From positions 32,001-96,000 of the IMG/VR virus record IMGVR_UViG_3300032292_000618: 64,000 nt of DNA. One strand, written 5' to 3'. Numbering within the stretch: position 1 is the first letter of the stretch; each line of letters begins with the position of its first letter. The stretch comes from a virus. Lineage: Duplodnaviria; Caudoviricetes. Below the pieces are notes generated by a model. The model searched no databases, was not told the DNA's origin, and saw only the letters and a list, made by a program, of their open reading frames with translations. A program made the translations under genes and the position numbers. This document shows positions 15,787 to 44,238 of the stretch, one piece after another.

Positions 15787-15834
15787 CTTGAAACCTAACA
15801 GAGTGATTCTACTTAAAATACAAATTCTTGTCAA
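15787..15834 (-). promoter_or_regulatory. Sigma70-type promoter plus conserved 25-bp leader (copy 1, minus strand)
   Basis: Reverse complement reads TTGACA-N17-TAGAATCACTCTGTTAGGTTTCAAG; the 25-mer is identical to 44214-44238. Confidence 0.8.
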
Positions 15835-15838
15835 CTAC

Positions 15839-15867
15839 TTGTCATTTTTGTGTTCTTATGCTACTAT
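15839..15867 (+). promoter_or_regulatory. Sigma70-type promoter for gp55
   Basis: TTGTCA-N17-TACTAT. Confidence 0.6.
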
Positions 15868-15890
15868 TTGAACACCTATAAAAATATTTT

Positions 15891-16379
15891 ATGTTAGGAA
15901 TAATGCCTAAAGGAAAGAAAAGGTCAGAACATTACGTAAACAACAAAGAATTCCATCAAGCTCTTACTGAGTATAAAAGAAAAGTAATTCACGCCAAAAA
16001 AAATGATCTTCCTAAACCAAGGATTACAAATTATCTTGGAGAATGCTTTTTAAAAATTGCAACACATTTATCATATAAACCAAACTTTGTAAACTATATG
16101 TTCAAAGATGATATGATATGTGATGGAATAGAAAATTGTATTCAATACATTGATAACTTTGATGTTGAAAGAACAAATCCTTTTGCATATTTTACTCAAA
16201 TAGTTTACTATGCATTTCTAAGAAGAATTGCAAAAGAGAAAAAGCAACTTGAAATTAAAACCAAAATTATCGAAAGATCTGGATTTGATGAAGTATTCTT
16301 TGCAGATACTTCAGAATTAGGTTATGATTCTGCTAATATGAATAATATTAAAGATAATATTAATTATAGATTTTCATAA
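15891..16379 (+). CDS. gp55: Late transcription sigma factor (gp55)
   Basis: HYVNNKEF, PNFVNY, NPFAYFTQI. Confidence 0.96.
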   Translation: MLGIMPKGKKRSEHYVNNKEFHQALTEYKRKVIHAKKNDLPKPRITNYLGECFLKIATHLSYKPNFVNYMFKDDMICDGIENCIQYIDNFDVERTNPFAYFTQIVYYAFLRRIAKEKKQLEIKTKIIERSGFDEVFFADTSELGYDSANMNNIKDNINYRFS

Positions 16380-16402
16380 TAATACTAAGTGAATTTTTTA
16401 AA

Positions 16403-17431
16403 ATGCTAATAGCTATTATAACTGACACCCATTTTAATTTTAAAAAGGGAAATACGATATTTCATGATTACTTTGAGAAATTTTATAGCAAAGTATTTTT
16501 TCCAACACTAAAAAAATACAAAATTGATACTGTCATACACCTTGGTGATATTTTTGACAATCGTAAATCTACAGATTATTGGAGTATTGATTGGACAAAG
16601 AGAGTTATTTTAGAACCACTTAAAAAATATAAAGTTCATTTGGTTCTTGGTAATCATGACATCTTTTATAAGAATACAAATAAACTCAACAGTCCAGAAC
16701 TTTTAATTGGAAATTATAAGAACATTAACATATACACTAAACCATCTAATGTACATTTTGATGGACAGGAAGTGCTGTTTGTTCCCTGGATAACCTCAGA
16801 TGGGGAGTCTGAGACCCTCAGAGCAATACAAAACACTTCTGCTAGGGTTGCTATGGGACACCTTGAATTGTCAGGGTTTTATGCCCATAAAGGGCATGTT
16901 CAAGAAAATGGAAGAGACAAATCTATATTTGAAAAGTTTGATAGAGTATTTTCAGGACACTATCATACTAGAAGTGATGATGGAAAAATATATTATCTTG
17001 GCAATCCATATCAATTATATTGGAATGATTATTCTGATACTAGAGGATTTTCTATATTTGACACAGAAACACTTGAGATTATTAAAATAGATAATCCATA
17101 TCAAATGTTTAAAATTATCAATTATGTTGATGATATGTTTATTAATCTTGAAGATTATGAAAACTGCATGGTTAAGTTGATAGTAAATGAAAAGAAAGAT
17201 AAAGTTAAGTATGAAAAATTCTTAGACTTTTTATTGGAAGCAAATATTCAAGAACTTAAAATCATAGAAAATATTCAAATCAATCATGAATTTGATGCAT
17301 GTGAACATGTAGAGAATGAAGATACTCTATCTCTTCTGAAAAAATATGTTGATGAATCTGAAATTAAGTTAAATAAAAATAGAATAAAAACCTTGATACA
17401 ATCAATATATCAAGAATCATTTCAGATTTAA
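16403..17431 (+). CDS. gp47: Recombination endonuclease, Mre11/SbcD-like (gp47)
   Basis: ITDTH, HLGDIFD, GNHD, SGHYH metallophosphoesterase motifs. Confidence 0.95.
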   Translation: MLIAIITDTHFNFKKGNTIFHDYFEKFYSKVFFPTLKKYKIDTVIHLGDIFDNRKSTDYWSIDWTKRVILEPLKKYKVHLVLGNHDIFYKNTNKLNSPELLIGNYKNINIYTKPSNVHFDGQEVLFVPWITSDGESETLRAIQNTSARVAMGHLELSGFYAHKGHVQENGRDKSIFEKFDRVFSGHYHTRSDDGKIYYLGNPYQLYWNDYSDTRGFSIFDTETLEIIKIDNPYQMFKIINYVDDMFINLEDYENCMVKLIVNEKKDKVKYEKFLDFLLEANIQELKIIENIQINHEFDACEHVENEDTLSLLKKYVDESEIKLNKNRIKTLIQSIYQESFQI

Positions 17432-17432
17432 C

Positions 17433-17714
17433 ATGTATATATTAACAGTTTCAGATGAAGATCAAAACGGAGCATTTGCAGTAGAAAATAGAAACGGAGA
17501 AAAAGTTTTGTTTCTATTTGAGGAAGAAGATGATGCTGTTAGATATAAAATGATGTTAGAAGAATTAGATTATCCAGATATGGATATCATTGAAGTAAAT
17601 ACTGAAGTAGCTGTAGCAGCATGTGACCAATTAGATTATAGTTATGCTATAATCACCTCAGACGATATTGTTATTCCTCCTGATTATGATAAAGTTTCAA
17701 AAACTAAGATATAA
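17433..17714 (+). CDS. Conserved cyanophage hypothetical protein
   Basis: LFEEEDDAVRY; lies between gp47 and gp46. Confidence 0.7.
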   Translation: MYILTVSDEDQNGAFAVENRNGEKVLFLFEEEDDAVRYKMMLEELDYPDMDIIEVNTEVAVAACDQLDYSYAIITSDDIVIPPDYDKVSKTKI

Positions 17715-19407
17715 AAATTTTCTTTCTTCTGGTAATTATTGGACAGAAATTAATCTATCAGAGAGTAATGCAACTTTAGTAGTTGGATATAATGGGGCTG
17801 GAAAGAGCACTATGTTAGATGCTCTTACATTCTCCTTGTTTAATAAACCTTTTAGGAAAATTAATAAAAATCAATTAGTCAACACTTGCAACGAAAAAGA
17901 TTGTAAGGTTGAAATTGAATTTACTGTTAGTGGAAAAAACTGGAAAATTATTAGAGGAATTAAACCAGCTATTTTTGAAATCTATAGAAATAATGTTTTA
18001 TTGGATCAGGCATCATCTTCAAATGATCAACAAAAGTGGATAGAACAGTCGCTATTAAAATTAAATTATAAATCCTTCACTCAGATTATAGTCTTAGGAT
18101 CTTCTAATTTTGTTCCATTCATGCAACTGTCTTCTCAACATAGAAGAGAAGTTGTGGAAGATTTACTTGACATTAAAGTATTTTCTTCTATGAATGATGT
18201 TGCAAAAGTAAAGATAAAAGAATTGCGAGATGAAGTTAGAGACTTTTCATATAAAAAAGAAAACCTTCAAGATAAAATTGATTCTCAATCTAACTTTATT
18301 TTAGAGTTGCAAAAAAGAACAGAACAAGATATAGAAAATAAATCTAATAGAGTATTAGAATTTGAAAATGAAATAATTAAGTTGGATACAAATATAGAAT
18401 CACTTCAGAAAAAAATTGAAGTGTTGAATAATGATCTTATTCTTCTTACTTATTCTGAAGATGACTTAACTAATCTTGAAAATTCTAATGCTGCTATTAA
18501 TCAAAAAATATCTTCTTTAATTGATGAGCATAAATTTTTTAAAAAGAATAGGGTTTGCCCTACATGCACTCAAAATATTGAAGAAGAATTTCGGTTAAAT
18601 AAAATTGAAACCATTGAGAGCAATGCAAAGGAAATTCAAGAAGATCAAAAACATCTTTTAAATTCTATTAAGTCGGAAAAGAAAAAACAAAATGAGTTCA
18701 TTCAAATTACTAAAGAGGTATCAAAATTAATCAATGACATTAATTTTAACAACGTTGAAATTTCTGGATTTAGAAAACAGATCAAAATTATTGAATCTGA
18801 AATTCAAACACTTACCTCCCAAAATCAAGACACAAATATTGAACATGAAAAATTAAAATCACTTAAAGAATCTTTAGAAGATTTACTTCAAGATATTTCT
18901 ACTAAAAAAGAAGAGCTTCAAAATTACGAATTTATCAATCTACTTCTTAAAGATGATGGGGCAAAATCTAAAATTATCAAAAAATACTTACCAATCATTA
19001 ATACTAATTTAAATAAGTATTTGGAAATTTTAGATTTCCCTGTTCATTTTGTTTTAGATGAAGAGTTCAATGAAAAGGCTTTAAACCCAAGTTATCAAGA
19101 TTTTTCTTATTCGTCTTTTTCCGAAGGAGAAAAAATGAGAATAGATCTTGCACTTTTGTTTACTTGGAGAGAAGTTGCCAAAATTAAAAATTCAATCAAC
19201 ACAAATTTATTAATTTTAGATGAGATATTTGATAGCTCACTGGATGAAGCTGGAACAGATTACTTTACTAAAATTATTAAATTTGTAATTAAAAATTCAA
19301 ATACATTTGTTATTTCTCATAAAGTAGATGATTTACTTGAAAAATTTGACAAGACAATTAGATTTGAAAAGAAAAAAGGATTCAGTATGATGGTTGACTC
19401 TAATTGA
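17686..19407 (+). CDS. gp46: Recombination ATPase, Rad50/SbcC-like (gp46)
   Basis: GYNGAGKST, CPTC zinc hook, FSEGEKMRIDL, ILDE. Confidence 0.96.
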   Translation: MIKFQKLRYKNFLSSGNYWTEINLSESNATLVVGYNGAGKSTMLDALTFSLFNKPFRKINKNQLVNTCNEKDCKVEIEFTVSGKNWKIIRGIKPAIFEIYRNNVLLDQASSSNDQQKWIEQSLLKLNYKSFTQIIVLGSSNFVPFMQLSSQHRREVVEDLLDIKVFSSMNDVAKVKIKELRDEVRDFSYKKENLQDKIDSQSNFILELQKRTEQDIENKSNRVLEFENEIIKLDTNIESLQKKIEVLNNDLILLTYSEDDLTNLENSNAAINQKISSLIDEHKFFKKNRVCPTCTQNIEEEFRLNKIETIESNAKEIQEDQKHLLNSIKSEKKKQNEFIQITKEVSKLINDINFNNVEISGFRKQIKIIESEIQTLTSQNQDTNIEHEKLKSLKESLEDLLQDISTKKEELQNYEFINLLLKDDGAKSKIIKKYLPIINTNLNKYLEILDFPVHFVLDEEFNEKALNPSYQDFSYSSFSEGEKMRIDLALLFTWREVAKIKNSINTNLLILDEIFDSSLDEAGTDYFTKIIKFVIKNSNTFVISHKVDDLLEKFDKTIRFEKKKGFSMMVDSN

Positions 19408-19422
19408 TATAGGTGGTATTAT
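19394..19422 (+). promoter_or_regulatory. Sigma70-type promoter
   Basis: TTGACT-N17-TATTAT. Confidence 0.6.
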
Positions 19423-19449
19423 GATTACTGACAAATTATAAAATTTACT

Positions 19450-19986
19450 ATGTTTGGTCCTGATGATGAACAAAATTATGTAAGCATGACAAACAAAGGA
19501 TATAGAATGACTGCAGATGGATTTTGGTTTAAACCATCTAATAATCCAATTACCACAACCTCAGACAATCCTGAATTGGGTTGTTATAAACACACATATC
19601 CTGATGGATCTGTAAAATATACTCTTACAGAAATGCCAGATGACCCTCATACTTTTAATTTGAATATGACTGAAAATACTAATAAAAATGGATTTTGGAA
19701 ATATAATGAAGATAAAACTCTAAAAGATATTGAGCAGTATCTTGCCAGCACTTACAAGGCACATTATACTTCTGAACAGTCCAAGACTCAAACTCTTGAT
19801 CTGATTGAAAGTATTGGCGATGCTGAACCTTTTACAAGGTCTAATGCTATTAAATATCTTTCTAGATTTGGTAAAAAGAATGGAAAGTCAAGGCTTGATA
19901 TTTTGAAAGCAATCCATTACTGCATTCTTCTATATAACTTTGCTGGACTACACAATGAAACTAAGAGCACCTATGAAACTTTCTGA
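19450..19986 (+). CDS. DUF3310-like protein
   Basis: TYKAHY, NAIKYLSRFGKK, DILKAIHY. Confidence 0.75.
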   Translation: MFGPDDEQNYVSMTNKGYRMTADGFWFKPSNNPITTTSDNPELGCYKHTYPDGSVKYTLTEMPDDPHTFNLNMTENTNKNGFWKYNEDKTLKDIEQYLASTYKAHYTSEQSKTQTLDLIESIGDAEPFTRSNAIKYLSRFGKKNGKSRLDILKAIHYCILLYNFAGLHNETKSTYETF

Positions 19987-20638
19987 AAATACTATTAATA
20001 TCCTGAAGAATTTTTCTTCTATTAATCAGTCTATTGTTTTTAAAGAAGGGTCTAAATTGAAGACTATTTCAGTAATGACTAATATCTTTGCTGAAGCAGA
20101 AGTGGAAGAAAGTTTTCCAAAAGATTTTGCAATCTATGATCTTAATCAATTTCTAAATGGACTAAATCTTCACCAAGATCCTGAACTGGATTTTGATAAT
20201 GAAAACTATCTTATTATTCGTGAAGGGAAGAGGAAGGTAAAATATTTTTATGCAGACCCTGAAGTGATTGTATCACCTCCAAATAGAGAGATGAAACTTC
20301 CATCTGAAGATGTCTGTTTTGAACTGGAGCATTCACAACTAGATAAACTTAAGAAAGCAGCATCAGTATATGATCTTGATGATCTTTCTGTTGTTGGAGA
20401 GTCTGGTGTAATTAGACTTGTTGTTAGAGATAAAAAGAATGATACATCTAATGAGTTTTCAATTGTTGTTGGTGAAACTTTAAATACATTTGTGTTTAAT
20501 TTTAAAGTAGAAAACATTAAAATTATTCCTGGTTGCTATAGTGTAATTATTTCAGAAAAGAATGTTGCCAAATTCACTAACGAAAAATACAATCTAACAT
20601 ACTTTATTGCTCTTGAACCAGATTCAACCTTTGAATGA
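19973..20638 (+). CDS. gp45: Sliding clamp (gp45)
   Basis: MKLSENTINILKNFSSINQS, FAIYDLNQFL, YFIALE. Confidence 0.95.
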   Translation: MKLSENTINILKNFSSINQSIVFKEGSKLKTISVMTNIFAEAEVEESFPKDFAIYDLNQFLNGLNLHQDPELDFDNENYLIIREGKRKVKYFYADPEVIVSPPNREMKLPSEDVCFELEHSQLDKLKKAASVYDLDDLSVVGESGVIRLVVRDKKNDTSNEFSIVVGETLNTFVFNFKVENIKIIPGCYSVIISEKNVAKFTNEKYNLTYFIALEPDSTFE

Positions 20639-20781
20639 AATTTAGAGTAAGATACCAACTTCCAAAAGATTCTAGATATCTAGAACTTATTGTTGAAGCA
20701 AATAATCAGTGCCATGCAGTTAAAGTATCTCAGGCACAAATACCTTCAGCAAGAATAGTTGGAGGACCCCAACCAGTTTAA
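20635..20781 (+). CDS. Small hypothetical protein (48 aa; missing from the ORF track)
   Basis: ATGA overlap with the gp45 stop; MKFRVRYQLPKDSRYLELIVEANNQCHAVKVSQAQIPSARIVGGPQPV. Confidence 0.6.
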   Translation: MKFRVRYQLPKDSRYLELIVEANNQCHAVKVSQAQIPSARIVGGPQPV

Positions 20782-20797
20782 TCCTGATTTTTAAATT

Positions 20798-21745
20798 ATG
20801 AGTCGTGACCAATTTCTTTGGGTTGAAAAATATAGACCCAAAACAATTAAAGATTGTATTTTGCCAGATGCCATCAAACAAACATTTCAAAAGTTTGTAG
20901 ATGCTGGAGAAGTTCCAAATCTTCTCCTATCTGGTCCTGCTGGATGTGGTAAGACTACAGTGGCAAAGGCATTGTGTAATGAATTAGGAGTAGATTTTTA
21001 CATCATTAATGGATCAGATGAAGGAAGATTTCTAGATACAGTTAGAAATCAGGCAAAGAATTTTGCATCAACAGTCTCCCTTCAGGGAAATGGAAAACCA
21101 AAAGTTATTATCATTGATGAAGCTGATAATACTACTACTGATGTGCAACTACTTCTTAGAGCTAATATAGAAACTTTTTATAATAATTGTAGATTTATTT
21201 TTACATGTAATTATAAAAATAAGATCATTGATCCTCTCCATTCTAGATGTGCAGTTGTTGATTTTGCTATTAAGACTAAAGAAAAAGTTTCTCTAGCAGA
21301 ATCATTTTTCATTCGTCTGCAGACTATTTTGGATAAAGAATCTGTAAAATATGATCCAAAAGTTATTGCACAACTGATCAATAAGCACTTCCCAGATTGG
21401 AGAAGAGTTTTAAATGAATGTCAAAGATATTCAGTTGGTGGATCTATTGATTCTGCAATCCTTGCATCCTTTAGTAATGTAAAACTAAATGATCTAGTCA
21501 AACATTTGAAGGAAAAGAACTTTGGTGAAGTTCGTAAATGGGTTGTAGAAAATTTGGATAATGATGCAGGCATTGTTCTTCGTAATGTTTATGATGCCTT
21601 GTATGATAAATTAGATGGTTCTGGAATTGCTGCTGCAGTTCTTATTATTGCTAAGTACCAGTACCAAAGCGCATTTGTGGCAGACCAAGAAATAAATATT
21701 CTTGCTGCCCTTACAGAAATTATGGTGGAGTGTAATTTTAAATGA
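20798..21745 (+). CDS. gp44: Clamp loader large subunit (gp44)
   Basis: LWVEKYRP, GPAGCGKTT, IIDEAD, LHSRC. Confidence 0.96.
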   Translation: MSRDQFLWVEKYRPKTIKDCILPDAIKQTFQKFVDAGEVPNLLLSGPAGCGKTTVAKALCNELGVDFYIINGSDEGRFLDTVRNQAKNFASTVSLQGNGKPKVIIIDEADNTTTDVQLLLRANIETFYNNCRFIFTCNYKNKIIDPLHSRCAVVDFAIKTKEKVSLAESFFIRLQTILDKESVKYDPKVIAQLINKHFPDWRRVLNECQRYSVGGSIDSAILASFSNVKLNDLVKHLKEKNFGEVRKWVVENLDNDAGIVLRNVYDALYDKLDGSGIAAAVLIIAKYQYQSAFVADQEINILAALTEIMVECNFK

Positions 21746-22029
21746 ATGTAAAACTTGTTAGATTTTCTTTTGGTCAAGAAGTAATTGCAGAACTTATTGA
21801 AGAGTTCGATACTTATATTATTATTAAGGATGCTCTTGCAGCAGTTCCTACAGGGCAAGGACAACTTGGATTTGTTCCTTGGGCACCAATTATCAGTAAG
21901 ACAGATAATCAATTAACTATTGGCAAATCATTTGTTGTTTATATTGCAACACCAGATGATGATGTCATCAAGTATCATAAAAGTGTTTTTGGTAGAGTCA
22001 TTACTACAGAAAAATCTTTGATTCTATGA
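21742..22029 (+). CDS. Hypothetical protein, probable Sm-like fold
   Basis: VKLVRFSFGQEVIAE, FVPWAP. Confidence 0.6.
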   Translation: MNVKLVRFSFGQEVIAELIEEFDTYIIIKDALAAVPTGQGQLGFVPWAPIISKTDNQLTIGKSFVVYIATPDDDVIKYHKSVFGRVITTEKSLIL

Positions 22030-22235
22030 ACCCTTATAAAATTTCATATAAACATCTAAAAGAACCTGTAGTGAAAACTACTCCAGAAAATGTCAGAGAA
22101 GCAAATGAATGTTTATTTCGTGCTAAAATGACCCTTCCTGCTGCTGCAAACCATTGTGGTATGACGCAGAAGGAAATGAAACTCACATTTTGGGAATATT
22201 TAAAATATCATAAACCTGATTATGAAGGAACTTAA
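22026..22235 (+). CDS. Conserved cyanophage hypothetical protein
   Basis: 69 aa, overlaps both neighbours. Confidence 0.6.
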   Translation: MNPYKISYKHLKEPVVKTTPENVREANECLFRAKMTLPAAANHCGMTQKEMKLTFWEYLKYHKPDYEGT

Positions 22236-23052
22236 GACACCATTACGCTACCCTGGAGGAAAATCCAGAGCAGTGCAAAAACTAGCACAATACTTTCCTA
22301 ATCTTAGAGATTGTTATGGAGAGTTTCGTGAACCATTTCTTGGCGGTGGAAGTGTTGCAATTTACATCACCAAGATGTTTCCTTTGTTAGATATTTGGGT
22401 AAATGACCTTTATGAACCATTGGTAAACTTCTGGCAGCAACTCCAGATGTTTGGATATGATCTACAGAGCGAATTAGTTGATTGTAAACTTGCTTACAAT
22501 ACTCCAGAATTAGCAAGAGAATTATTTACAAAGTCAAAGGAGCATATCAATGATGAGTCTGAAACTAACTTTAATCGTGCTGTCGCTTTCTATATTGTTA
22601 ACAAATGTTCTTTTAGTGGTCTTACCGAAAGTTCATCTTTTTCTGCACAAGCAAGTAGTTCCAATTTCTCCTTGAGGGGAATCTACAAATTGCGAGAATA
22701 CTCAGAGTTGATTGCAAATTGGCGTATTACTAATTACTCCTATGATTACCTCATGGATGGAGACACAGGTGCTTTTATGTATCTTGACCCTCCTTATGAT
22801 ATTAAGGATAATCTCTATGGGAACAGAGGATCAATGCACAAAGGATTTGATCACGATAAGTTTGCTGCTGATTGTGATTCTAATAATATGGATATGATGG
22901 TCAGTTATAATTCAACTCAGTTGATCAAAGAAAGATTTAATACATGGAAAGCAATTGAATTTGCTCATACTTATACTATGAGATCAGTTGGAGAATACAT
23001 GAAAGACCAACATGAACGAAAAGAATTAGTTCTTATTAATTATGAAGTATGA
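22222..23052 (+). CDS. dam: DNA adenine methyltransferase (Dam/D12 class)
   Basis: LRYPGGKS, EPFLGGGSV, YLDPPY. Confidence 0.9.
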   Translation: MKELKTPLRYPGGKSRAVQKLAQYFPNLRDCYGEFREPFLGGGSVAIYITKMFPLLDIWVNDLYEPLVNFWQQLQMFGYDLQSELVDCKLAYNTPELARELFTKSKEHINDESETNFNRAVAFYIVNKCSFSGLTESSSFSAQASSSNFSLRGIYKLREYSELIANWRITNYSYDYLMDGDTGAFMYLDPPYDIKDNLYGNRGSMHKGFDHDKFAADCDSNNMDMMVSYNSTQLIKERFNTWKAIEFAHTYTMRSVGEYMKDQHERKELVLINYEV

Positions 23053-23428
23053 ATTGAAAGATTGGTTGAATTCAATTAATCAAACTAAAAAACATATTAT
23101 GGATGAAGATCCTTCTTCTACTAAAGAGTACTCTCCATATATTATTAACAAGTGTTTATCTGGTCACATTGATTGTCTGATGTATGTTAATGAACTCAAT
23201 AAGAATCATTCATTAGACAAAAAGTTACAATATGATTTTCTTATAAATATTCTCAGGATCAAAAAGAGATATTCTCCTTGGATTCGTAAGGATAAACTTA
23301 AAGATATTGATTTAGTTAAATCTTACTATGGGTATAGTAAAGATAAAGCAGAACAAGCTTTGAAAATTCTGACTAAAGACCAACTTAATTTTATAACACA
23401 GAAACTTGAAATTGGAGGAACAAAATGA
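23042..23428 (+). CDS. gp62: Clamp loader small subunit (gp62)
   Basis: LKDWLNSIN, QYDFL, VKSYYGYS. Confidence 0.92.
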   Translation: MKYELKDWLNSINQTKKHIMDEDPSSTKEYSPYIINKCLSGHIDCLMYVNELNKNHSLDKKLQYDFLINILRIKKRYSPWIRKDKLKDIDLVKSYYGYSKDKAEQALKILTKDQLNFITQKLEIGGTK

Positions 23429-23865
23429 GTGTTGTTCAAGAACCTGAAGTGAATTGGACTCCAGACCAAATGGTGGAAGTAGTCCTAAATGAACCCGATG
23501 ACTTTTTGAAGGTTCGTGAGACACTTACTCGTATTGGAGTAGCATCTAGAAAGGAAAAAAAGATTTATCAATCTTGCCATATTCTACATAAGCAAGGTAG
23601 ATATTATCTGGTGCATTTCAAAGAGTTGTTTGCTCTTGATGGCAAACATGCAAATCTTACTGTCAATGATGTTCAGAGACGTAATAGGATTGCACAACTT
23701 CTTGCTGATTGGGGATTAATTACTATTGTAGATGTAAATAAAATTTCTGATATTGCCCCACTTAACCAGATTAAAGTCCTTTCATATAAGGAAAAAAATG
23801 AATGGACTCTTGAGACCAAATATAATATTGGGTCAAAAAAGAAAAAGGTAGAGGTAACAGAATAA
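23425..23865 (+). CDS. regA: Translational repressor RegA
   Basis: DDFLKVRETLTRIG, CHILHKQGRYYLVHFKELF. Confidence 0.97.
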   Translation: MSVVQEPEVNWTPDQMVEVVLNEPDDFLKVRETLTRIGVASRKEKKIYQSCHILHKQGRYYLVHFKELFALDGKHANLTVNDVQRRNRIAQLLADWGLITIVDVNKISDIAPLNQIKVLSYKEKNEWTLETKYNIGSKKKKVEVTE

Positions 23866-23871
23866 TTTTGT

Positions 23872-23895
23872 AGGGGGTTCAACACCCCCTTTTTT
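23872..23895 (+). terminator. Terminator after regA
   Basis: AGGGGGT-TCAAC-ACCCCCT followed by a T run. Confidence 0.75.
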
Positions 23896-36197: not shown

Positions 36198-36224
36198 GTA
36201 ACTGACTAAAATATCCAATTCATT

Positions 36225-36250
36225 GGGGGAATTCATATTCCCCCTTTTTT
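36225..36250 (+). terminator. Terminator
   Basis: GGGGGAA-TTCATA-TTCCCCC followed by a T run. Confidence 0.75.
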
Positions 36251-36291
36251 ATAAATAACTTAAGAAAGAAATCTTATTCAAGGAAAGTCAC

Positions 36292-36879
36292 ATGGCTCTT
36301 TGGGGAAAAGCAGATAGTATTTTTTCAGCTGGGACAATCACTGTCAATCTTACTGCAAAAACTATCACAGGATCTGGAACTTCATTCACTGCAGTTGGAG
36401 TTGAAACTGGTGTAGTAATTAATATTGGGGTTGGTGGCACTTTTGGTTCAGCTGTAATCTCAAAAATTACATCAGAAACTTTAGTCTCTATTGCAACAAC
36501 TCAGTACATCACTGGAATAGGCACTGAAGGTGCTGGAGCAACTGTTGGGGTTGCTTACACTATGTCAAGAAAACCAATCTATATTCTTGGTGATACCAAT
36601 TATTCTGGTATTCAAACTACTTCAACTAAATTGACTAATACAATTTATGGAGTAGATGTTTTAGAAGTTGGATATGGGGCAACTGCAACAGTTAAAGGAA
36701 AAGTTGGTGCATATAAAGTAGCACATGCTGGTTGGGTTGGAGTTCATACTTATGTTGATATGCATGGTAATTTTAGAGTTAAGTCAGAAACTCTAGTTGC
36801 AATGTCTGGTATTTCCAGTGGAACAACTACTGCATTTGCAACTGGTGATGCTAATGATGATGATGTATTTCTCCCATGA
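36292..36879 (+). CDS. Probable virion structural protein
   Basis: MALWG start, HAGWV, RVKSETLVAM; late promoter at 36250. Confidence 0.7.
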   Translation: MALWGKADSIFSAGTITVNLTAKTITGSGTSFTAVGVETGVVINIGVGGTFGSAVISKITSETLVSIATTQYITGIGTEGAGATVGVAYTMSRKPIYILGDTNYSGIQTTSTKLTNTIYGVDVLEVGYGATATVKGKVGAYKVAHAGWVGVHTYVDMHGNFRVKSETLVAMSGISSGTTTAFATGDANDDDVFLP

Positions 36880-36885
36880 TAACAT

Positions 36886-37257
36886 ATGAAGTTTGATGAA
36901 TTGAATGAAGATAATTATATTTTATTTGCTATAAAATATTACGACAATCCTCAAGCAGTGACTCAAGAAGATTTTTTTGAGGATTTAAGTAGGTTTAAAT
37001 ATATTAAAAAACTTCTAAGAAAGTACGTTAAATCAGGAGATTTAAAAGTAAGTCTCCTGATTAATCACTTTATTATTGTTTTTAATATTTTTAATGAGGC
37101 TGCAGTTCCTTTACTATTTTTTAAAATAGAAAAAGAACTATGGTCTTCTATGAAAACTTTTTTGGTGTTTCTTGATAGAGTTCCAGAATTTCCACAAACA
37201 TTTGTTAATGAAATACCAATAGATGAAAATTGTTTAAAAATATTGCAATCTCTCTAA
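36886..37257 (+). CDS. Conserved T4-like hypothetical protein
   Basis: FAIKYYDNP, FKYIKKL, LLINH. Confidence 0.75.
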   Translation: MKFDELNEDNYILFAIKYYDNPQAVTQEDFFEDLSRFKYIKKLLRKYVKSGDLKVSLLINHFIIVFNIFNEAAVPLLFFKIEKELWSSMKTFLVFLDRVPEFPQTFVNEIPIDENCLKILQSL

Positions 37258-37258
37258 T

Positions 37259-37438
37259 ATGGATGCTTCTAAGTTAAATCTTATAATAAATATTATTAGA
37301 ACAAACATTATCGAAGACATGAGCGCTACTGGTGGGGGTTTAGCTGGATTACCTCCAGAAGAACCACCTGTAGATCTGAGAAAAACAAAGTTCAAAAAGT
37401 TGCCCTATTTTTTCAGACAACTTCTGAGGAAGAAGTAG
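37259..37438 (+). CDS. Small hypothetical protein (59 aa; missing from the ORF track)
   Basis: MDASKLNLIINIIRTNIIEDMSATGGGLAGLPPEEPPVDLRK... Confidence 0.55.
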   Translation: MDASKLNLIINIIRTNIIEDMSATGGGLAGLPPEEPPVDLRKTKFKKLPYFFRQLLRKK

Positions 37439-37439
37439 C

Positions 37440-37880
37440 ATGTTTAACAGATCTACAGAAACAAAAATTGCAGTTCTTGAAGAACGTCTTACATCCTATG
37501 AGGTAATGATGAAGAAGATTGACGAAGCCATTCAGATAATGGGAACTACAAGTCAAAACATCTCAAAGATGTTGGCAGTTCATGAAGAAAAGTTAGAAAA
37601 TAATAGTAAAAATGATGAATTACTTATTGACAGAATTAAGACTATAGAAGTAAAAAATACAGAAGAACATAGTAGAGTGATTGAAAGGTTTGAATCATTA
37701 GAAAAAAAGATAGATGGACGTATAGAGACAGTAGATAAAAAAGTTGATGATGTAACAAAATTTCGTTGGTTAGTTGTAGGTGCTTTAGTAATAGTTTCTT
37801 TTGTATTTTCTCAGTCAAGTATGGTTGTGGATATCTTGACACCAGATCCAAGACAGGTTAAGATAGAAGCATCAAAGTAA
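37440..37880 (+). CDS. Coiled-coil protein with C-terminal transmembrane helix
   Basis: KIAVLEE, LAVHEEKL, KFRWLVVGALVIVSFVF. Confidence 0.7.
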   Translation: MFNRSTETKIAVLEERLTSYEVMMKKIDEAIQIMGTTSQNISKMLAVHEEKLENNSKNDELLIDRIKTIEVKNTEEHSRVIERFESLEKKIDGRIETVDKKVDDVTKFRWLVVGALVIVSFVFSQSSMVVDILTPDPRQVKIEASK

Positions 37881-37890
37881 TTTTTACATA

Positions 37891-38916
37891 ATGAATTTAA
37901 TTGATTCCAAGTATATTGGATTAATTTCTGCACGATTGAATAAATTTAAAAAAGTAAAAAATAATCTTTATAACTTTAGATGTCCATATTGTGGGGACTC
38001 TGAAAAATATAAAAATAAAGCAAGGGGATATATTTACCAATATAAAAATGATCATAACTACAAATGTCATAATTGTGGCATCTCTAGATCATTCACTAAT
38101 TTTTTGAAGGACATTGATTGCGTTCTTCATGACCAGTATGTGATGGAAAGATATAAGAATGGTTTAACTGGTAAAGGATCTAATACTGCAGATCCTGACT
38201 TCAATTTTCAGAAACCAAACTTTTTCAAGAATCCTGAAAATTCCCAAACTCTGAAAATTGTAGACTTGCCAACAGTGGCAGAACTAAATAAAGAACATCT
38301 GGCAAAGCAGTATGTAGAAAATAGGAAAATTCCAAAAAAGTTTCACAATCAATTATATTACTGTGAAAAATTTAAAGAGTGGACTAATACTCAAAAGTTT
38401 ACTTTTGAATCTACTAGTCAAGATGAACCAAGAATCATAATTCCACTTATTAACAAAGGAAATTTTTTTGGGTTTCAAGGTCGTAGTTTAGATCCAAAAT
38501 CAAAAGTAAAGTACATTACAATTATTCTAGAAGAGCATCATCCAAAAATATATGGACTTGATAGAGTTGATTGGGACAAAACTGTTTATATAACAGAGGG
38601 TCCATTTGATAGTATGTTCTTAGACAATGCTATTGCTATGGTTGGTGCTGATATTGATAGAATGTTTTTTGTCACAAATTTTGAAACTAATTTTGTCATG
38701 GTTTATGATAATGAAAAAAGAAATAAACAGATTGTAGATAGAGTACAAAAGGCAATTGATTTACATTTTCCTGTAGTCATTTGGCCACAAGATTTGAAGG
38801 AAAAGGATATTAATGATATGGTGTTGTCTGGACACAATGTAAATAATCTGCTAGAATCTAATACTTATTCTGGTCTAGAAGCAAAAACAAAACTTATTAA
38901 TTGGAAACGAGTATGA
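37891..38916 (+). CDS. gp61: DNA primase (gp61)
   Basis: RCPYCGDS, KCHNC zinc finger, TEGPFDS TOPRIM, KDINDM. Confidence 0.96.
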   Translation: MNLIDSKYIGLISARLNKFKKVKNNLYNFRCPYCGDSEKYKNKARGYIYQYKNDHNYKCHNCGISRSFTNFLKDIDCVLHDQYVMERYKNGLTGKGSNTADPDFNFQKPNFFKNPENSQTLKIVDLPTVAELNKEHLAKQYVENRKIPKKFHNQLYYCEKFKEWTNTQKFTFESTSQDEPRIIIPLINKGNFFGFQGRSLDPKSKVKYITIILEEHHPKIYGLDRVDWDKTVYITEGPFDSMFLDNAIAMVGADIDRMFFVTNFETNFVMVYDNEKRNKQIVDRVQKAIDLHFPVVIWPQDLKEKDINDMVLSGHNVNNLLESNTYSGLEAKTKLINWKRV

Positions 38917-41210
38917 GCAACGGAACAAAAGTTATTAAAAGGAATGGATCTGTTGAAAGTTTGGATCTTAACAAACTACATTTGATGGTGGATGAGGCAT
39001 GTAAAGATCTTACTGGAGTATCTGCATCCCAAGTAGAAATGCAATCTGGCATTCAATTTTATGATGGAATTACAACTGCAGAGGTTCAGGAAATTTTAAT
39101 TCGTTCAGCATCTGATCTTATTGATCTTGAAAATCCTAATTATCAATTTGTAGCAGCAAGACTTCTTTTGTTTTCTGTTAGAAAATCTCTTTATGGTAGA
39201 GTGCAAGATCATCCATCATTCGTTGATCATATTAAAAATTGTGTCAATGTAGGTGTGTATGACCCTATGATCCTGACTAACTATAGTGAGGAAGAACTTA
39301 ACAAACTTGGTCACTATATCAATCACAATCGTGATTATCTATTTACTTATGCTGGACTCAGACAAGTAGTAGATAAGTATCTTGTACAAGATAGAAGTTC
39401 TGGGAGGGTTTATGAAACTCCCCAGTTCATGTATATGATGATTGCAGCAACCATTTTTGCTCAGTACCCCAAAGAAACTAGAATCTCATATGTAAAGAGA
39501 TACTATGACTCAATCTCCAAGCACAAAATCAACATCCCAACGCCAATTATGGCAGGAGTCAGAACTCCACTTCGTCAATATGCAAGTTGCGTTCTTGTTG
39601 ATGTTGATGACACCATGCGTAGTATCGAGTCTAGTGATTCTGCAATTTTTAGGTATGTTGCTCAAAGAGCAGGAATTGGTATCAACGCAGGTCGCATCAG
39701 GGGCATCAACGCTAAAATCAGAGGCGGAGAAGTTATGCATACGGGCGTTGTCCCATTCCTCAAAAAATTTGAGGCAACTGTCAGATCTTGCACTCAAAAC
39801 GGCATCCGTGGTGGAAGTGCTACTGTCCACTTTCCCATCTGGCACAAAGAAATAGAAGATATTCTTGTTCTTAAGAACAATAAAGGTACAGAAGATAATA
39901 GAGTAAGAAAACTAGATTACTCAATTCAAATTAGTAAATTGTTCTATGAAAGATTTATCAGTAACCAAGATATCTCACTATTCAGTCCACATGACGTTCC
40001 TGAGCTTAGTGCTAATTTTGGGCTTGATGGATTTGACAATCTATATCTGGCTGCAGAACGAGATCAGTCTATTCCAAGAAAAACTATTGGTGCTCAAGAA
40101 CTCATTCTGGACCTCCTAAAGGAGAGAGCAGAAACTGGTAGAATCTACATCATGAATATTGATCATTGCAATTCTCACTCATCCTTTAAGGATAAGATTG
40201 AGATGAGCAATCTATGTCAAGAAATTACTCTTCCAACAAAACCACTAAATCATATTGATGACCCTGATGGTGAAATTGCTCTTTGCATCTTGTCTGCAGT
40301 TAATGTTGGCAAAGTCAAGGATGATGAAGAGTTTGAAGAACTTTGTGAACTGTCTGTAAGAGGACTTGAAGAACTGATTGATTATCAAGATTATCCTGTA
40401 GTTGCTGCAGAAAAATCCACCAAAGCAAGAAGGTCTCTTGGTATTGGTTATATTGGTCTGGCACATTATCTTGCCAAACTTGGTTTTAGATATGATTCCC
40501 AAGAAGCATGGGATGCAGTTCATGGATTGTCTGAGTCATTCCAATACTATCTCCTAAAAGCATCTAATAAGATTGCAAAGGAAAAGGGTGCTTGTGAATA
40601 CTTTAATAGAACTAAGTATTCTGATGGTATTCTTCCAATTGATACTTACAAAAAGGATGTAGACGAAATTACTTCAATTCCATACCAGCATGATTGGCAG
40701 ACTTTACGTGCCGAGATTCAGGCACATGGACTTAGACATAGTACATTGTCGGCACAAATGCCTTCAGAGAGCAGTTCCGTTGTGTCAAATGCAACCAATG
40801 GAATTGAACCACCTAGAGGATTCTTGTCCATTAAAAAGAGCAAGAAGGGACCCCTTAAGCAGATTGTTCCCCAGTATCAACACCTTAAGAACAATTACAC
40901 GCTTCTTTGGGATATGCCTAGCAATACTGGTTATATTAATATTGTTGCAGTTATGCAAAAATTCTTCGATCAAGCAATTTCTGGAAACTGGTCCTATAAT
41001 CCAGAAAATTACCCAGACAATGAAGTTCCTGTTAGCGTAATGGCACAAGATTTTCTAACCACTTATAAGTATGGATGGAAGACATCTTATTATCAAAATA
41101 CATATGATAATAAAACAGATGAGGTAAAGGAAGAAAATAATGTTCAAAATCTAATACTAGAACTTTTAAATTCAGAAGGAGAAGATGACTGTGAATCATG
41201 TAAAATTTAG
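38913..41210 (+). CDS. nrdA: Ribonucleotide reductase class Ia alpha subunit
   Basis: ATP cone VIKRNG, PTPIMAG, SNLCQEI, C-terminal CESCKI. Confidence 0.98.
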   Translation: MSNGTKVIKRNGSVESLDLNKLHLMVDEACKDLTGVSASQVEMQSGIQFYDGITTAEVQEILIRSASDLIDLENPNYQFVAARLLLFSVRKSLYGRVQDHPSFVDHIKNCVNVGVYDPMILTNYSEEELNKLGHYINHNRDYLFTYAGLRQVVDKYLVQDRSSGRVYETPQFMYMMIAATIFAQYPKETRISYVKRYYDSISKHKINIPTPIMAGVRTPLRQYASCVLVDVDDTMRSIESSDSAIFRYVAQRAGIGINAGRIRGINAKIRGGEVMHTGVVPFLKKFEATVRSCTQNGIRGGSATVHFPIWHKEIEDILVLKNNKGTEDNRVRKLDYSIQISKLFYERFISNQDISLFSPHDVPELSANFGLDGFDNLYLAAERDQSIPRKTIGAQELILDLLKERAETGRIYIMNIDHCNSHSSFKDKIEMSNLCQEITLPTKPLNHIDDPDGEIALCILSAVNVGKVKDDEEFEELCELSVRGLEELIDYQDYPVVAAEKSTKARRSLGIGYIGLAHYLAKLGFRYDSQEAWDAVHGLSESFQYYLLKASNKIAKEKGACEYFNRTKYSDGILPIDTYKKDVDEITSIPYQHDWQTLRAEIQAHGLRHSTLSAQMPSESSSVVSNATNGIEPPRGFLSIKKSKKGPLKQIVPQYQHLKNNYTLLWDMPSNTGYINIVAVMQKFFDQAISGNWSYNPENYPDNEVPVSVMAQDFLTTYKYGWKTSYYQNTYDNKTDEVKEENNVQNLILELLNSEGEDDCESCKI

Positions 41211-42375
41211 AACAACTGCAGATAGAAATAAAGCCATGGAAGGAATGACAGTATTTAATACCAATCCAGTTGATTCAAAAAAGCAACCAATGTTTTTTGG
41301 ACAACCTCTTGGGGTCCAAAGATATGATTCATACAAGTATCCAATCTTTGAAAAACTCACAACTCAACAACTTGGATATTTTTGGAGACCAGAGGAGGTC
41401 TCCTTACAGAAAGACAGGGGAGATTATCAAACTCTTCGTCCTGAACAAAAACACATTTTTACTTCTAATTTAAAATATCAAATTCTTTTAGATTCAGTTC
41501 AAGGAAGAGGACCTGGAATGGCATTTCTTCCATACTGCTCTCTTCCTGAATTGGAAGCATGTATGACAGTGTGGGAATTTATGGAAATGATCCATTCTAG
41601 ATCTTATACTTACATCATCAAAAATGTATATTCTGATCCAACAGAAGTATTTGATACTATTTTGAATAATGAGAAAATTCTAGAACGTGCATCTACAGTA
41701 ACCAGTGCCTATGATGATTTTATTAATAGTGCACAATCTTATGGTAATTCAAATCTCTGGGTTCATGCTTTGGAAGGAGTTCCTTCTGCACAAGAAGAAA
41801 GAATAGCAATTAAAAGAAAACTTTATAGAGCAATAGCTAATGTCAATATTCTCGAAGGTATCAGATTCTATGTCTCTTTCGCTTGCTCGTTTGCGTTTGG
41901 TGAACTCAAACTTATGGAAGGATCAGCTAAAATTATCTCTCTCATCGCACGAGACGAAAATCAACACCTTGTCATTACTCAAAACATCCTCAATAAGTGG
42001 CGTGAAGGAGATGATCCAGAAATGCAAAGGATCGCTAAAGAAGAAGAATCTTGGGTGATAGAAGCATTTAAAAATGCAGTTAATCAAGAAAAGTATTGGG
42101 CAGAGTACCTGTTCAAAGATGGTTCTATGATTGGTTTAAATGATAAACTATTACAGCAATATGTTGAGTGGATTGCAAATCGTAGAATAAAGGCAATTGG
42201 CATTAAACCAATTTATGATGTTCCTGCTAAAACTAATCCACTTCCTTGGACTGAACATTGGATTAGTTCTAAAGGTCTTCAAGTGGCACCACAAGAAACA
42301 GAAGTTGAGAGTTATGTGGTTGGTGGTATTAAGCAGGACGTAAAGAAAGATACCTTTGCTGGATTCAAACTGTAA
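41185..42375 (+). CDS. nrdB: Ribonucleotide reductase class Ia beta subunit
   Basis: FWRPEE, EMIHSRSY, LEGIRFY, RDENQH, APQETE. Confidence 0.98.
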   Translation: MTVNHVKFRTTADRNKAMEGMTVFNTNPVDSKKQPMFFGQPLGVQRYDSYKYPIFEKLTTQQLGYFWRPEEVSLQKDRGDYQTLRPEQKHIFTSNLKYQILLDSVQGRGPGMAFLPYCSLPELEACMTVWEFMEMIHSRSYTYIIKNVYSDPTEVFDTILNNEKILERASTVTSAYDDFINSAQSYGNSNLWVHALEGVPSAQEERIAIKRKLYRAIANVNILEGIRFYVSFACSFAFGELKLMEGSAKIISLIARDENQHLVITQNILNKWREGDDPEMQRIAKEEESWVIEAFKNAVNQEKYWAEYLFKDGSMIGLNDKLLQQYVEWIANRRIKAIGIKPIYDVPAKTNPLPWTEHWISSKGLQVAPQETEVESYVVGGIKQDVKKDTFAGFKL

Positions 42376-42386
42376 CAAATGTTACA
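42371..42386. promoter_or_regulatory. NtcA-binding-site consensus (TGTA-N8-TACA)
   Basis: TGTAACAAATGTTACA, perfect GTA-N8-TAC palindrome. Confidence 0.7.
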
Positions 42387-42408
42387 AAATAACTTGTATA
42401 AATTATAA

Positions 42409-42452
42409 TACGTTCACCCATAAGGGCGGAAGTAGGGAAACTGAAGGAACGC
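42409..42452 (+). ncRNA. Glutamine riboswitch (glnA RNA motif, class I)
   Basis: P1 CGTTC/GAACG, P2 CCC-ATAA-GGG, GGAAGTA...TGAAG E-loop core, minimal P3 closed by a GAAA loop. Confidence 0.85.
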
Positions 42453-42483
42453 ACCAATACCCACAAAGTAAAGGAGCAAACCT

Positions 42484-42564
42484 ATGGCACTTATTTTAAT
42501 TAGACAAAAAATGCTTAAAGAGATGAGATTAAAACAATCTCAACTGTATATGGCTATGGTGTGA
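42484..42564 (+). CDS. 26-aa basic peptide downstream of the glutamine riboswitch
   Basis: AAGGAG SD; MALILIRQKMLKEMRLKQSQLYMAMV; followed by a terminator. Confidence 0.7.
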   Translation: MALILIRQKMLKEMRLKQSQLYMAMV

Positions 42565-42570
42565 TATTGA

Positions 42571-42597
42571 GAGGGTCTTCTGACCCTCTTTTTTTTA
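42571..42597 (+). terminator. Terminator
   Basis: GAGGGTC-TTCT-GACCCTC followed by a T run. Confidence 0.85.
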
Positions 42598-42620
42598 TAA
42601 ATACTTAAAAAGTTATAGCT

Positions 42621-43427
42621 ATGTTGTCACCTAAAGAATTTCAAAATCTTTATATGTCCATGTATGAGGCAAGAGATGATGATGCAAGGGAGATGAGAAG
42701 ACTTGCTGCTGCTGAAAGACGTGCAGGCAACTCTGATAGAATGGATGCAAAGACAGCATCAAAGTATGCTGGATCAGAAGCAAAGTCAGCAGAAAGAGAA
42801 GATAGGAAATCTAAAGGTAAGCATATTCATGGAATGGCAGATTCTGTTGAGTTGAAAGGTGATATTATTGATGAAAAGAAAGATGATTCATATCTAGAGA
42901 CAGATATGAATAAGAGAAAAAAGAATAATGAAAAGGCAATTGAAGATATGCAGAAGACCAAGGCACATGCTGATATGGTCAAAGCAGCACGTAGACATTT
43001 TGGTGAAGCAAAAAACAAAGAAGGTAAAGAGCAAGGTGCTGATGGTAAAGCTTGCTGGAAAGGTTATAAGTATGCTGGTACTGAAAAGGGCAAAGATAAG
43101 TGTATAAAGTCCGAAGAACTTGAATTAGATGAAAGAGCACTTGATACTGCAGAGACTGGTGAAAAGGAAAGACTTGTAACAGGAATGAAGAAGTCTGCAT
43201 CAGACTTTAAGAAGAGATATGGTGCAAAAGCAAAGTCAGTTATGTATGCAACTGCTACCAAAATAGCAAAGAAAAATATGGATACTTCACAATCAGATAG
43301 AAGATATTCAGTTGAAGAGGTAGATGCTGAGCATAGAACTAGAAAACCATCTCAAATTGCCAAAAGAGAAAAACTTACTAGACTTTTAGATCAAATCAGA
43401 TCTAAAAAAGGCGAAAAGGAAGGTTGA
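42621..43427 (+). CDS. Charged modular late protein, probable internal head protein
   Basis: Late promoter at 42596; basic modules separated by hydrophobic-x-E sites; CWKGY motif. Confidence 0.65.
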   Translation: MLSPKEFQNLYMSMYEARDDDAREMRRLAAAERRAGNSDRMDAKTASKYAGSEAKSAEREDRKSKGKHIHGMADSVELKGDIIDEKKDDSYLETDMNKRKKNNEKAIEDMQKTKAHADMVKAARRHFGEAKNKEGKEQGADGKACWKGYKYAGTEKGKDKCIKSEELELDERALDTAETGEKERLVTGMKKSASDFKKRYGAKAKSVMYATATKIAKKNMDTSQSDRRYSVEEVDAEHRTRKPSQIAKREKLTRLLDQIRSKKGEKEG

Positions 43428-43474
43428 ATTAAAATAAATAAAGGGGAGATTAATTCTCCTCTTTTTTTGTATCT

Positions 43475-43765
43475 ATGGAAAATGCTCCTGATTCATCTAA
43501 AGATGTTGTAGACATTCTTGCTAAGGTAGAATACCTTAACGCTGAGAATGATAAATTAAAAGTATCATTAGAATCTGCTAATACTCTTAATATTCAACCA
43601 AAAGGTACAGTCTTTGGAGCAAAACTTAAAGTAGAAAATAATGGGAATGTTGCTACATCTGTAATTTTTGATACTAAAAAACTTAGAGACAAAGGGAGAT
43701 ATACATCTCCAAAAGATGCTTTAGATCAAGCACTAAAAGATTTTTTGGACAATCAAAATGTTTAA
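43475..43765 (+). CDS. Hypothetical protein
   Basis: 96-aa ORF. Confidence 0.55.
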   Translation: MENAPDSSKDVVDILAKVEYLNAENDKLKVSLESANTLNIQPKGTVFGAKLKVENNGNVATSVIFDTKKLRDKGRYTSPKDALDQALKDFLDNQNV

Positions 43766-44216
43766 AATATTCGAGATCAGAGAAGGAAAATTTACTGCTC
43801 TTCCTCAGTTAAGTTCTAAAAAAATCAAAGGATTTTTTATAATTTCTGCTGTAATGATAGGCATTTCCTTATTATCTGGGTGGTTAAATATATCCGAAAA
43901 ACAACTTTGGAAGTACTATCAACTTTTACTTGAGCAATTAAATCTTAAGCAAGAACTTCCAGATTTAAGAAATAATGACAAGAAGTTAGAAGCAGAAATA
44001 GAAGTAGAAGTAGATAGAGCAATCAGAGAGTATGAGCAGTGGGAGTCCTCTGTCCCCCCCAGGATGACCAACAAGGTCATCTTAGAGGATCTAAAGTCCC
44101 CAAAGTTCTCTGACACTCAGAGGTTGATCGTGAAGGATGCCATCTACTATGAGTGCCCTGAAGGAGTTATGGGCATCAGAGCTGTGTGGGTTGACAAAGA
44201 TCCTGAATGTAACTAG
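43758..44216 (+). CDS. Hypothetical membrane-anchored protein
   Basis: One TM segment (FFIISAVMIGISLLSGWL); C-terminal Cys pair. Confidence 0.55.
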   Translation: MFKIFEIREGKFTALPQLSSKKIKGFFIISAVMIGISLLSGWLNISEKQLWKYYQLLLEQLNLKQELPDLRNNDKKLEAEIEVEVDRAIREYEQWESSVPPRMTNKVILEDLKSPKFSDTQRLIVKDAIYYECPEGVMGIRAVWVDKDPECN

Positions 44217-44238
44217 AATCACTCTGTTAGGTTTCAAG
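44191..44238 (+). promoter_or_regulatory. Sigma70-type promoter plus conserved 25-bp leader (copy 2)
   Basis: TTGACA-N17-TAGAATCACTCTGTTAGGTTTCAAG. Confidence 0.8.

Follow-up and report, generated by a model that had tools for sequence, protein, structure and literature searches.

A probable promoter family with a conserved start-site box in T4-like cyanophages

Why would a phage carry the same 25 bp of promoter sequence twice, in inverted orientation, on either side of its replication genes? The question is raised by the IMG/VR virus record IMGVR_UViG_3300032292_000618, a contig of 142,782 bases; its positions 32001-96000, a stretch of 64,000 nucleotides here called the window, contain both copies. 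An earlier note on the window read the pair as R-loop replication origins bracketing the replication module, or as a duplicated small RNA or operator with a sequence-specific leader. We compared both copies with their counterparts in other phages. On balance we favor a reading in which each 25-mer is the -10 element plus the start-site box of one host-type promoter family, present in one to three copies in T4-like cyanophages (Kyanoviridae and relatives). The box would be a regulatory site at the DNA level, a sequence maintained by gene conversion, or both.

The repeat pair

The 25-mer, TAGAATCACTCTGTTAGGTTTCAAG, is exact at 15787-15811 on the minus strand and at 44214-44238 on the plus strand. 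The window contains no further copy at up to three mismatches (chance expectation, 0.00), and the whole contig contains the 25-mer only at these two sites. The repeat is real and far beyond chance. Because independent metagenome contigs carry each copy (L004 and L089 the plus copy, L006 the minus copy), an assembly artefact is excluded. The 19-mer core also is found at the same gp55-side position in diverged contigs.

Both copies have the anatomy of a promoter, in that TTGACA-N17 precedes the 25-mer. The minus box promoter (15787-15834) comprises a -35 element, TTGACA, at 15829-15834; a -10 element, TAGAAT, at 15806-15811; and the box, CACTCTGTTAGGTTTCAAG, at 15787-15805. Spacing places its predicted start at G15799. 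The plus box promoter (44191-44238) comprises the corresponding elements at 44191-44196, 44214-44219, and 44220-44238, with a predicted start at G44226. Both match the sigma-70 consensus at 11 of 12 positions, in line with the earlier note's description of near-consensus promoters with a sequence-specific start region. That note also was right that the 17-nt spacers differ (only about half of their positions are identical) and that similarity continues beyond the 25-mer: after a 1-nt indel, 11 of 13 bases are alike (AAAAATAATATCT versus ATAAATAATAGCT). On the minus strand, this tail resembling the plus copy (AAAAATAATATCT) occupies 15774-15786.

The two copies are inverted and point outward. 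They enclose 28.4 kb that encode gp55, gp47, gp46, gp45, gp44, gp43, UvsX, gp41, NrdA, and NrdB.

The constant copy beside gp55

The minus copy lies in the 115-bp gap between an Sm-like gene and the late sigma factor gene, gp55 (15891-16379, plus strand). The Sm-like gene (15398-15775, plus strand; 125 aa, T4-GC 139) was recognized from a Pfam Sm_like match (E 8e-9), PHROG 471, and LSm-based PDB matches; in cultured phages it is annotated as "methylamine utilization". Upstream of it is the uvsW helicase gene (13935-15398, plus strand), assigned from its open reading frame (ORF) and orthologous annotation. The earlier note had the minus copy firing antisense into the uvsW region with no ORF to serve. 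No credible minus-strand ORF was found behind this copy, so that part stands; a transcript would, however, run antisense over the Sm-like gene first, and over uvsW only after that. Within 2 kb downstream, no intrinsic terminator that would bound a small RNA was found. The note's suggestion of a duplicated operator with a sequence-specific leader comes close to what the comparisons indicate.

We next turn to 80 gp55 loci from IMG/VR, whose gp55 proteins are 64-89% identical. Nearly all have TTGACA-N17-TA(G/C/T)AAT on the opposite strand, approximately 75-90 nt upstream of the gp55 start. Directly after the -10 element stands the box, AACTCTGTnAGGGTT(C/G)AAG or a close variant, and the stop codon of the Sm-like gene, in antisense, follows 8-15 nt past the box. 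From 148 distinct elements, to which most of these loci contributed, we derived a covariance model, R1. R1 finds a match opposite gp55, just upstream, in 79 of the 80 loci; the miss, L039, has just 46 nt of upstream sequence. (The window copies score 59.1 bits, minus, and 60 bits, plus.) Six cultured phages have the element in the same place, between UvsW / T4-GC139 and gp55: Syn33, P-SSM2, S-SKS1 (a separate genus), S-8S55, Syn9, and S-PM2. P-HM2 has a weak version, and T4 gave no R1 match. Positional conservation in related phages, a matter that the earlier note had raised, therefore is extensive for this copy.

A second promoter stands back to back with the antisense one. In the window, it is TTGTCA-N17-TACTAT (15839-15867, plus strand), directed toward gp55. 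In 55 of 69 loci, the best promoter in the gp55 direction is TTGTCA-N16-18-TATAAT, with its -35 offset by 1 nt from the antisense TTGACA. This offset of one base means that a palindrome, CTTGACAAG, serves both directions. In Syn9 and Syn33, each -35 is located within the spacer of the opposing promoter. We read the gp55-side element as a bidirectional promoter, at which binding of polymerase in one orientation should preclude use of the other.

The window's own version of this arrangement has two -35 hexamers 4 bp apart. At 15822-15845, the -35 is tandemly duplicated in the window's clade (TGACAAG-TAG-TTGACAAG) and not shared, giving one -35 for each divergent promoter.

Further copies and their genes

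Outside the gp55 locus, members of the family are variable in number, position, and downstream gene. A scan of IMG/VR with the commonest box variant returned 80 loci: 65 on the gp55 side; four before GIY-YIG genes; and 11 in other contexts. Whole-genome searches of the cultured phages with R1 always retrieved the gp55-side copy. P-SSM2 has no other. Two copies are present in S-SKS1 (the second at a helicase gene), in Syn9 (gp87/88 region), and in S-PM2 (p214); three are present in Syn33 (also at Syn33_083 and cpeT) and in S-8S55 (also upstream of the td region and at a GIY-YIG gene). Genes behind the extra copies thus include GIY-YIG nucleases, in at least three contexts; an ORF resembling PD-(D/E)XK nucleases; a helicase; cpeT; and hypothetical genes.

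The extra copies can lie far from gp55: at 13.8 and 46.9 kb versus 118 kb in Syn33; at 52.7 versus 123.7 kb in Syn9; and at 162.7 versus 84.4 kb in S-PM2. The Syn9 elements (NC_008296.2) occupy 123681-123736 (minus strand) and 52738-52793 (plus strand), and those of S-PM2 (NC_006820.1) occupy 84421-84477 (minus strand) and 162734-162790 (plus strand). The extra copies are inverted relative to the gp55-side copy because nearly all genes are on one strand and the gp55-side copy alone is on the minus strand. Bracketing of the replication module is confined to the window's clade, in which the copies of genome G001 are 27.9 kb apart and those of G002 are 31.9 kb apart.

At many secondary sites, the box promoter is joined to an intrinsic terminator, such that the terminator loop is the -35 and the T-run is the spacer (CACCCC-TTGAC-GGGGGTG, then T7). 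Such terminator-promoter composites were seen at L113, L121, L123, L139, L213, L235, L273, and others; neither window copy has an attached stem-loop terminator. Five of the 11 loci in other contexts precede a PD-(D/E)XK-like ORF of 112 aa, whose match to Pfam PDDEXK_15 (E 2.7e-4) is below the cut-off. This ORF of about 112 aa (...GGED...ECK...) stands behind a box promoter at L218:1176-1511 (minus strand) and also in L213, L219, L232, and L244. Near its start are a late-promoter-like ATAAATA and a hairpin, a design like that of the GIY-YIG cassette described below.

Concordance within genomes

The box extends over approximately 22 nt, from about -6 to +16, right after TTGACA-N17-TAnAAT. Its consensus is AACTCTGTnAGGGTTCAAG, with a weak dyad around the predicted start; the start is predicted at the G or T of the conserved TGT, 6-8 nt past the -10. 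Most informative is the way in which it varies, since the copies of one genome share that genome's variant. The window variant, CACTCTGTTAGGTTTCAAG, is present in both copies. G001 has ...GGTTTGAAGGAT (...TTTGAAGGAT) in both of its copies, and the two copies of G002 are near-identical, alike out to +30. The three Syn33 copies share AACC(T/A)TGT...GGTTCAGA (...TTCAGA); the two S-SKS1 copies are identical over 21 nt; and all three S-8S55 copies have TGC in place of the otherwise near-invariant TGT. Syn9 has AACACTG in two copies, and both S-PM2 copies have a dyad of 16 nt, not 15 nt.

Mean box identity is 85% within genomes versus 63% between them; the corresponding values for the 17-nt spacer are 41% and 36%. 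When secondary copies were permuted among genomes, none of 20000 permutations reached the observed concordance. These patterns indicate that the box undergoes concerted evolution genome-wide, and that the identity of the two window copies is one instance of it. Among the positions that differ from genome to genome are -5 to -2; these precede the predicted start, and so favor reading of the box at the DNA level. A host factor does not set the variant, because phages of the WH7803 host (Syn33, S-SKS1, and S-PM2) differ in their boxes.

The plus copy and its nuclease gene

The -35 and spacer of the plus copy lie inside the final codons of an ORF at 43758-44216 (...VDKDPECN-stop). Thirty nucleotides downstream of the box begins the gene for a SegE-type GIY-YIG nuclease (44269-44727, plus strand; 152 aa; Pfam SegE_GIY-YIG E 1.5e-51, PHROG 447). 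The Pfam match spans residues 7-129 of 152; the protein consists of the catalytic domain only and has no DNA-binding module. Between box and gene is a nested, late-promoter-like ATAAATA (44240-44246, plus strand; a sequence match to the T4-type late promoter, TATAAATA) that is conserved in GIY-YIG loci.

The leader RNA has a predicted structure spanning 44232-44291 (plus strand). A 10-bp inner helix (44247-44256 with 44268-44277) contains the AUG at 44269, and a 10-bp outer helix (44232-44241 with 44282-44291) pairs the 3' half of the box with the DNPWK codons. For RNA 44226-44300, the predicted energy is -21.8 kcal/mol (z -3.89), and none of 200 shuffled sequences was as stable. RNA starting at 44252, as expected from the nested late promoter, has no such fold (z -0.23). 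The start codon is thus predicted to be hidden in RNA from the box promoter and freed in RNA from the late promoter. Relatives also have the inner helix; the register of the outer helix is not kept among GIY-YIG loci. This promoter with its box recurs at approximately half of 76 homologous nuclease loci, in no fewer than three different upstream contexts. In the remainder, the nuclease gene is coupled to an ORF upstream of it, with a late promoter.

This arrangement has a precedent in the homing endonuclease gene cassettes of T-even phages (I-TevI/II/III, segB, and mobE). In those genes, early or middle transcripts fold so that the ribosome-binding site or AUG is hidden, and transcription from a nested late promoter exposes it (Edgell, Gibb and Belfort 2010, PMC2988022). 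Likewise, the GIY-YIG ORF in the window stands behind a pre-late promoter with a predicted leader helix that buries its AUG, and ATAAATA is placed so that late RNA would lose the 5' arm (44247-44256). The likeness might be carried further, since the I-TevI operator mimics the I-TevI homing site (PMC2988022): in the window, too, the promoter-overlapping sequence recurs elsewhere, next to uvsW, the target gene of T4 SegE. However, an autorepressor of the I-TevI type needs a sequence-specific DNA-binding domain, which this nuclease lacks. Moreover, unlike the T-even cassettes, the same box heads unrelated genes, and it is present in phages whose GIY-YIG gene lacks it. Its occurrence before unrelated genes, and without the nuclease, means that the box is not the nuclease's private operator or target, and this candidate reading was rejected.

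Operator, conversion, origin, or RNA?

The favored reading, a promoter family whose box is a DNA-level site, maintained by conversion, or both, can be put as a mechanism. Its gp55-side member is constant. This member would form the backward half of a bidirectional promoter, its -35 shared with that of the gp55 promoter (abutting it in the window), and the RNA that it gives would be untranslated and run antisense to both the Sm-like gene and uvsW. The window's other copy is a variable member, here placed before a SegE-type GIY-YIG nuclease gene. The box would be read at the DNA level by a phage-specific factor, homogenized by short-patch gene conversion, or both; the two are not mutually exclusive. 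At gp55, the box would bias polymerase toward either the antisense or the gp55 direction, and in this way help to time expression of the late sigma factor.

In phage lambda, PR and PRM form a switch of divergent, competing promoters. The gp55-side element is similar in its back-to-back promoters and in an operator-like site that could decide direction; it differs in that the opposed promoters use the same -35 DNA, and in having no known repressor.

Several observations weigh against this reading, or against the part of it that invokes a factor. The genome-specific changes mostly are not dyad-symmetric, and resemble random substitutions copied between sites, a pattern to be expected of gene conversion no less than of a co-evolving factor. 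The copies in the window's clade stay alike to approximately +30 and over a few bases of the spacer. Together, the asymmetry and this spill lean towards gene conversion, although conservation of the box across the family still needs a function beyond conversion. Folded as a hairpin, the dyad has little stability (-2 to -3 kcal/mol; 0 for both window copies); one of its five pairs covaries (CG 113, UA 14, UG 13, GC 1), and another is U.G in 141 of 148 sequences. In the window, where the two -35 boxes lie side by side and do not overlap, it is less certain that one direction excludes the other. Transcription, start sites, and factor binding all are predictions from the DNA. Finally, an AbrB-like protein, considered as a universal factor, is encoded by Syn33 and Syn9 and is absent from P-SSM2 and from the window's contig (67% complete), and was rejected.

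A more specific version of the favored reading, that the box is the operator of a phage-encoded regulator whose specificity drifts from phage to phage, is speculative, and we offer it tentatively. Such a regulator would set late sigma timing by blocking or favoring the antisense half of the gp55-side promoter, which uses the -35 of the gp55 promoter, and would co-regulate one or two nuclease or accessory genes, forming a middle-to-late switch independent of MotA and AsiA in marine cyanomyoviruses. Host-like promoters reportedly drive middle genes in cyanomyoviruses. T4-like cyanophages lack MotA and AsiA, and the timing of their middle and late transcription is an open question (PMC2984593).

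Short-patch conversion, which could be confined to the sole homologous tract, is plausible in phages so prone to recombination; the analogy is with the promoter-early stem-loop (PeSL) cassettes known from T4-type phages (Arbiol et al. 2010, PMC2839356; Comeau et al. 2014, PMC4122927). These cassettes also suggest a rival, in which the family is a PeSL-like mobile regulatory cassette: recombination between short repeats, documented for PeSLs as in RB49/phi1, would spread and homogenize copies, and the box would serve only for promoter strength or escape and as a recombination handle for shuffling accessory genes. PeSLs are likewise near-consensus sigma-70-type promoters that are more alike within than between genomes and precede accessory genes, as the extra copies do, and the composite terminator-promoters strengthen the likeness. 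Concordance through non-symmetric, random-looking variants and the similarity to approximately +30 in the window's clade also are what such recombination would leave. We nevertheless consider it unlikely. Where PeSLs occur in dozens, clustered in hyperplastic regions, the box promoters number one to three per genome, and one is fixed in the conserved core, as antisense partner of the gp55 promoter, in essentially every phage; what is conserved is a block downstream of the -10, not an upstream stem-loop. Spacers within a genome are unrelated, and recombination alone leaves conservation of the box across the family unexplained. Replication origins are distinctly less probable. The gp55-side untranslated transcript, and perhaps those from other copies, would prime leading-strand synthesis as at T4 oriF(uvsY) and oriG(34), which resemble the element in having a pre-late promoter whose transcript need not encode protein and which lies near uvsW/uvsY (Kreuzer and Brister 2010, PMC3016281). 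A strong pre-late-type promoter without an ORF, universally conserved next to uvsW, is indeed suggestive: T4 UvsW unwinds origin R-loops (PMC3016281), most versions of the box have a G-run (GGG, at about +5 to +7) in the non-template strand, and T4 oriF likewise doubles as a gene promoter. However, what a T4 origin needs besides its promoter is an A+T-rich unwinding element whose exact sequence is immaterial, and the origins have little sequence in common (PMC3016281). Because this unwinding element needs no particular sequence, the T4 model does not predict a conserved box. From +1 to +60 of the minus copy, G+C is approximately 25%, versus 28% locally; this is unremarkable coding sequence of the opposite strand, in which no A+T-rich tract stands out. 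GC skew rises monotonically, and neither it nor cumulative skew has an inflection at either site. Copy number and position vary among phages, with P-SSM2 having just one copy, and the window's plus copy heads a gene. The earlier note's paired origins bracketing the replication module thus find no compositional or positional support.

An RNA-level function appears less probable again. The transcribed half of the box (GUnAGGGUUCAAG...) would act as a 5' leader bound as RNA, for instance by the neighboring Sm-like protein or RNase E, or would pair with the complementary read-through Sm-like/gp55 mRNA, and so couple nuclease and gp55 expression. Several features are in keeping with this idea: the ever-adjacent Sm-fold gene; G.T wobbles on the promoter strand, where minimum free energy is lower in 150 of 188 variants; and the predicted 10-bp helix between the 3' half of the plus-copy box and the DNPWK codons. 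Antisense RNAs also are known from cyanophages. S-PM2 CfrI is a cis-antisense RNA at psbA/F-CphI (Millard et al. 2010, cited in PMC5931967 and PMC2984593), and as described in those citing papers it shares with the gp55-side element a host-type promoter, an antisense transcript over phage genes (here predicted), and a homing-endonuclease context. On the same descriptions, it differs in locus and has no sequence in common; the box element has no defined 3' end, is found across the family, and is tied to the gp55 promoter. Against an RNA-level function, the box varies at -5 to -2, which is untranscribed from a canonical start 7 nt after the -10; the register of the outer helix is not conserved among GIY-YIG loci; and the minus-copy leader has no significant fold (z -0.08). 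A search of the whole window with Rfam gave no match at either copy, its hits (wcaG, glutamine riboswitch, and two tRNAs) being elsewhere.

Candidate features and factors outside the main argument

A 5' RNA hairpin (AACTC...GGGTT) was considered as the conserved feature, and was demoted to a weak dyad: its energy is weak, the window copies lack it, a single pair covaries, and the predicted start comes only after its 5' arm. A host transcription-factor site also was rejected, in that phages of the same host differ and 596 Gb of prokaryote genomes gave 68 hits, about the number expected by chance. Just four of the 68 stand in the promoter context, and these are on phage-like or island DNA.

A complete box promoter is present at L392:3017-3063 (plus strand), on an 82-kb single-cell contig of Synechococcus sp. 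AG-670-B23 (QCSL01000004.1). It adjoins a tyrosine integrase gene and an AlpA-like gene, and could be of phage origin, within an island of the host genome. Sixteen contigs of the metagenome-assembled genome "bacterium D_3_bin.27" carry the 18-mer AATAACTCTGTNAGGGTT without promoter context (L341, L345, L364, L367, L370, L371, L378, L380, L381, L384, L386-L388, L394, L395, and L400); these probably represent an unrelated repeat family containing the same word. In Syn33 and Syn9, the second box promoter is followed, 0.7-1.1 kb downstream, by a gene of the AbrB/MazE DNA-binding type (L408, Syn33 47647-47754; L409, Syn9 53894-54001), which possibly encodes an autoregulated factor.

Other features of the window

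Beyond the nuclease gene, a TTGACA-N17-TATAAT promoter at 45652-45695 (plus strand) precedes a tRNA gene at 45696-45766. A 7-bp inverted repeat flanks its -10 (TGGGAGT-TATAAT-ACTCCCA), and could be an operator or a hairpin. Next is an ORF of 493 aa (45830-47311, plus strand) with SLH and OprB-family porin domains (Pfam E 7e-9 and 1.5e-15, respectively) and a raised G+C of 0.41, which looks like a phage-carried cyanobacterial outer-membrane porin of the Som type. The Rfam matches are a glutamine riboswitch (42409-42455) before an ORF at 42621-43427; a wcaG RNA motif (48405-48502); and a second tRNA (48214-48285).

Implications

A literature search did not turn up the element; outside its reach were Doron et al. 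2016 (ISME J 10:1437), with its start-site map of Syn9, and Weigele et al. 2007, and the former may already describe it. New here are the figures on -35 sharing, the count of copies in whole genomes, and the co-variation of the box by genome.

For genome interpretation, the pair in the window cautions that identical short repeats far apart in such genomes need not mean origins or inversion sites; its bracketing of the replication module is incidental. For phage biology, a near-consensus host-type promoter that practically all cyanomyoviruses retain, that has no gene to express, and whose sequence overlaps the promoter for the late sigma factor gene is an obvious candidate control point. Moreover, the co-variation of the box among the copies of a genome gives a direct experimental handle on it.

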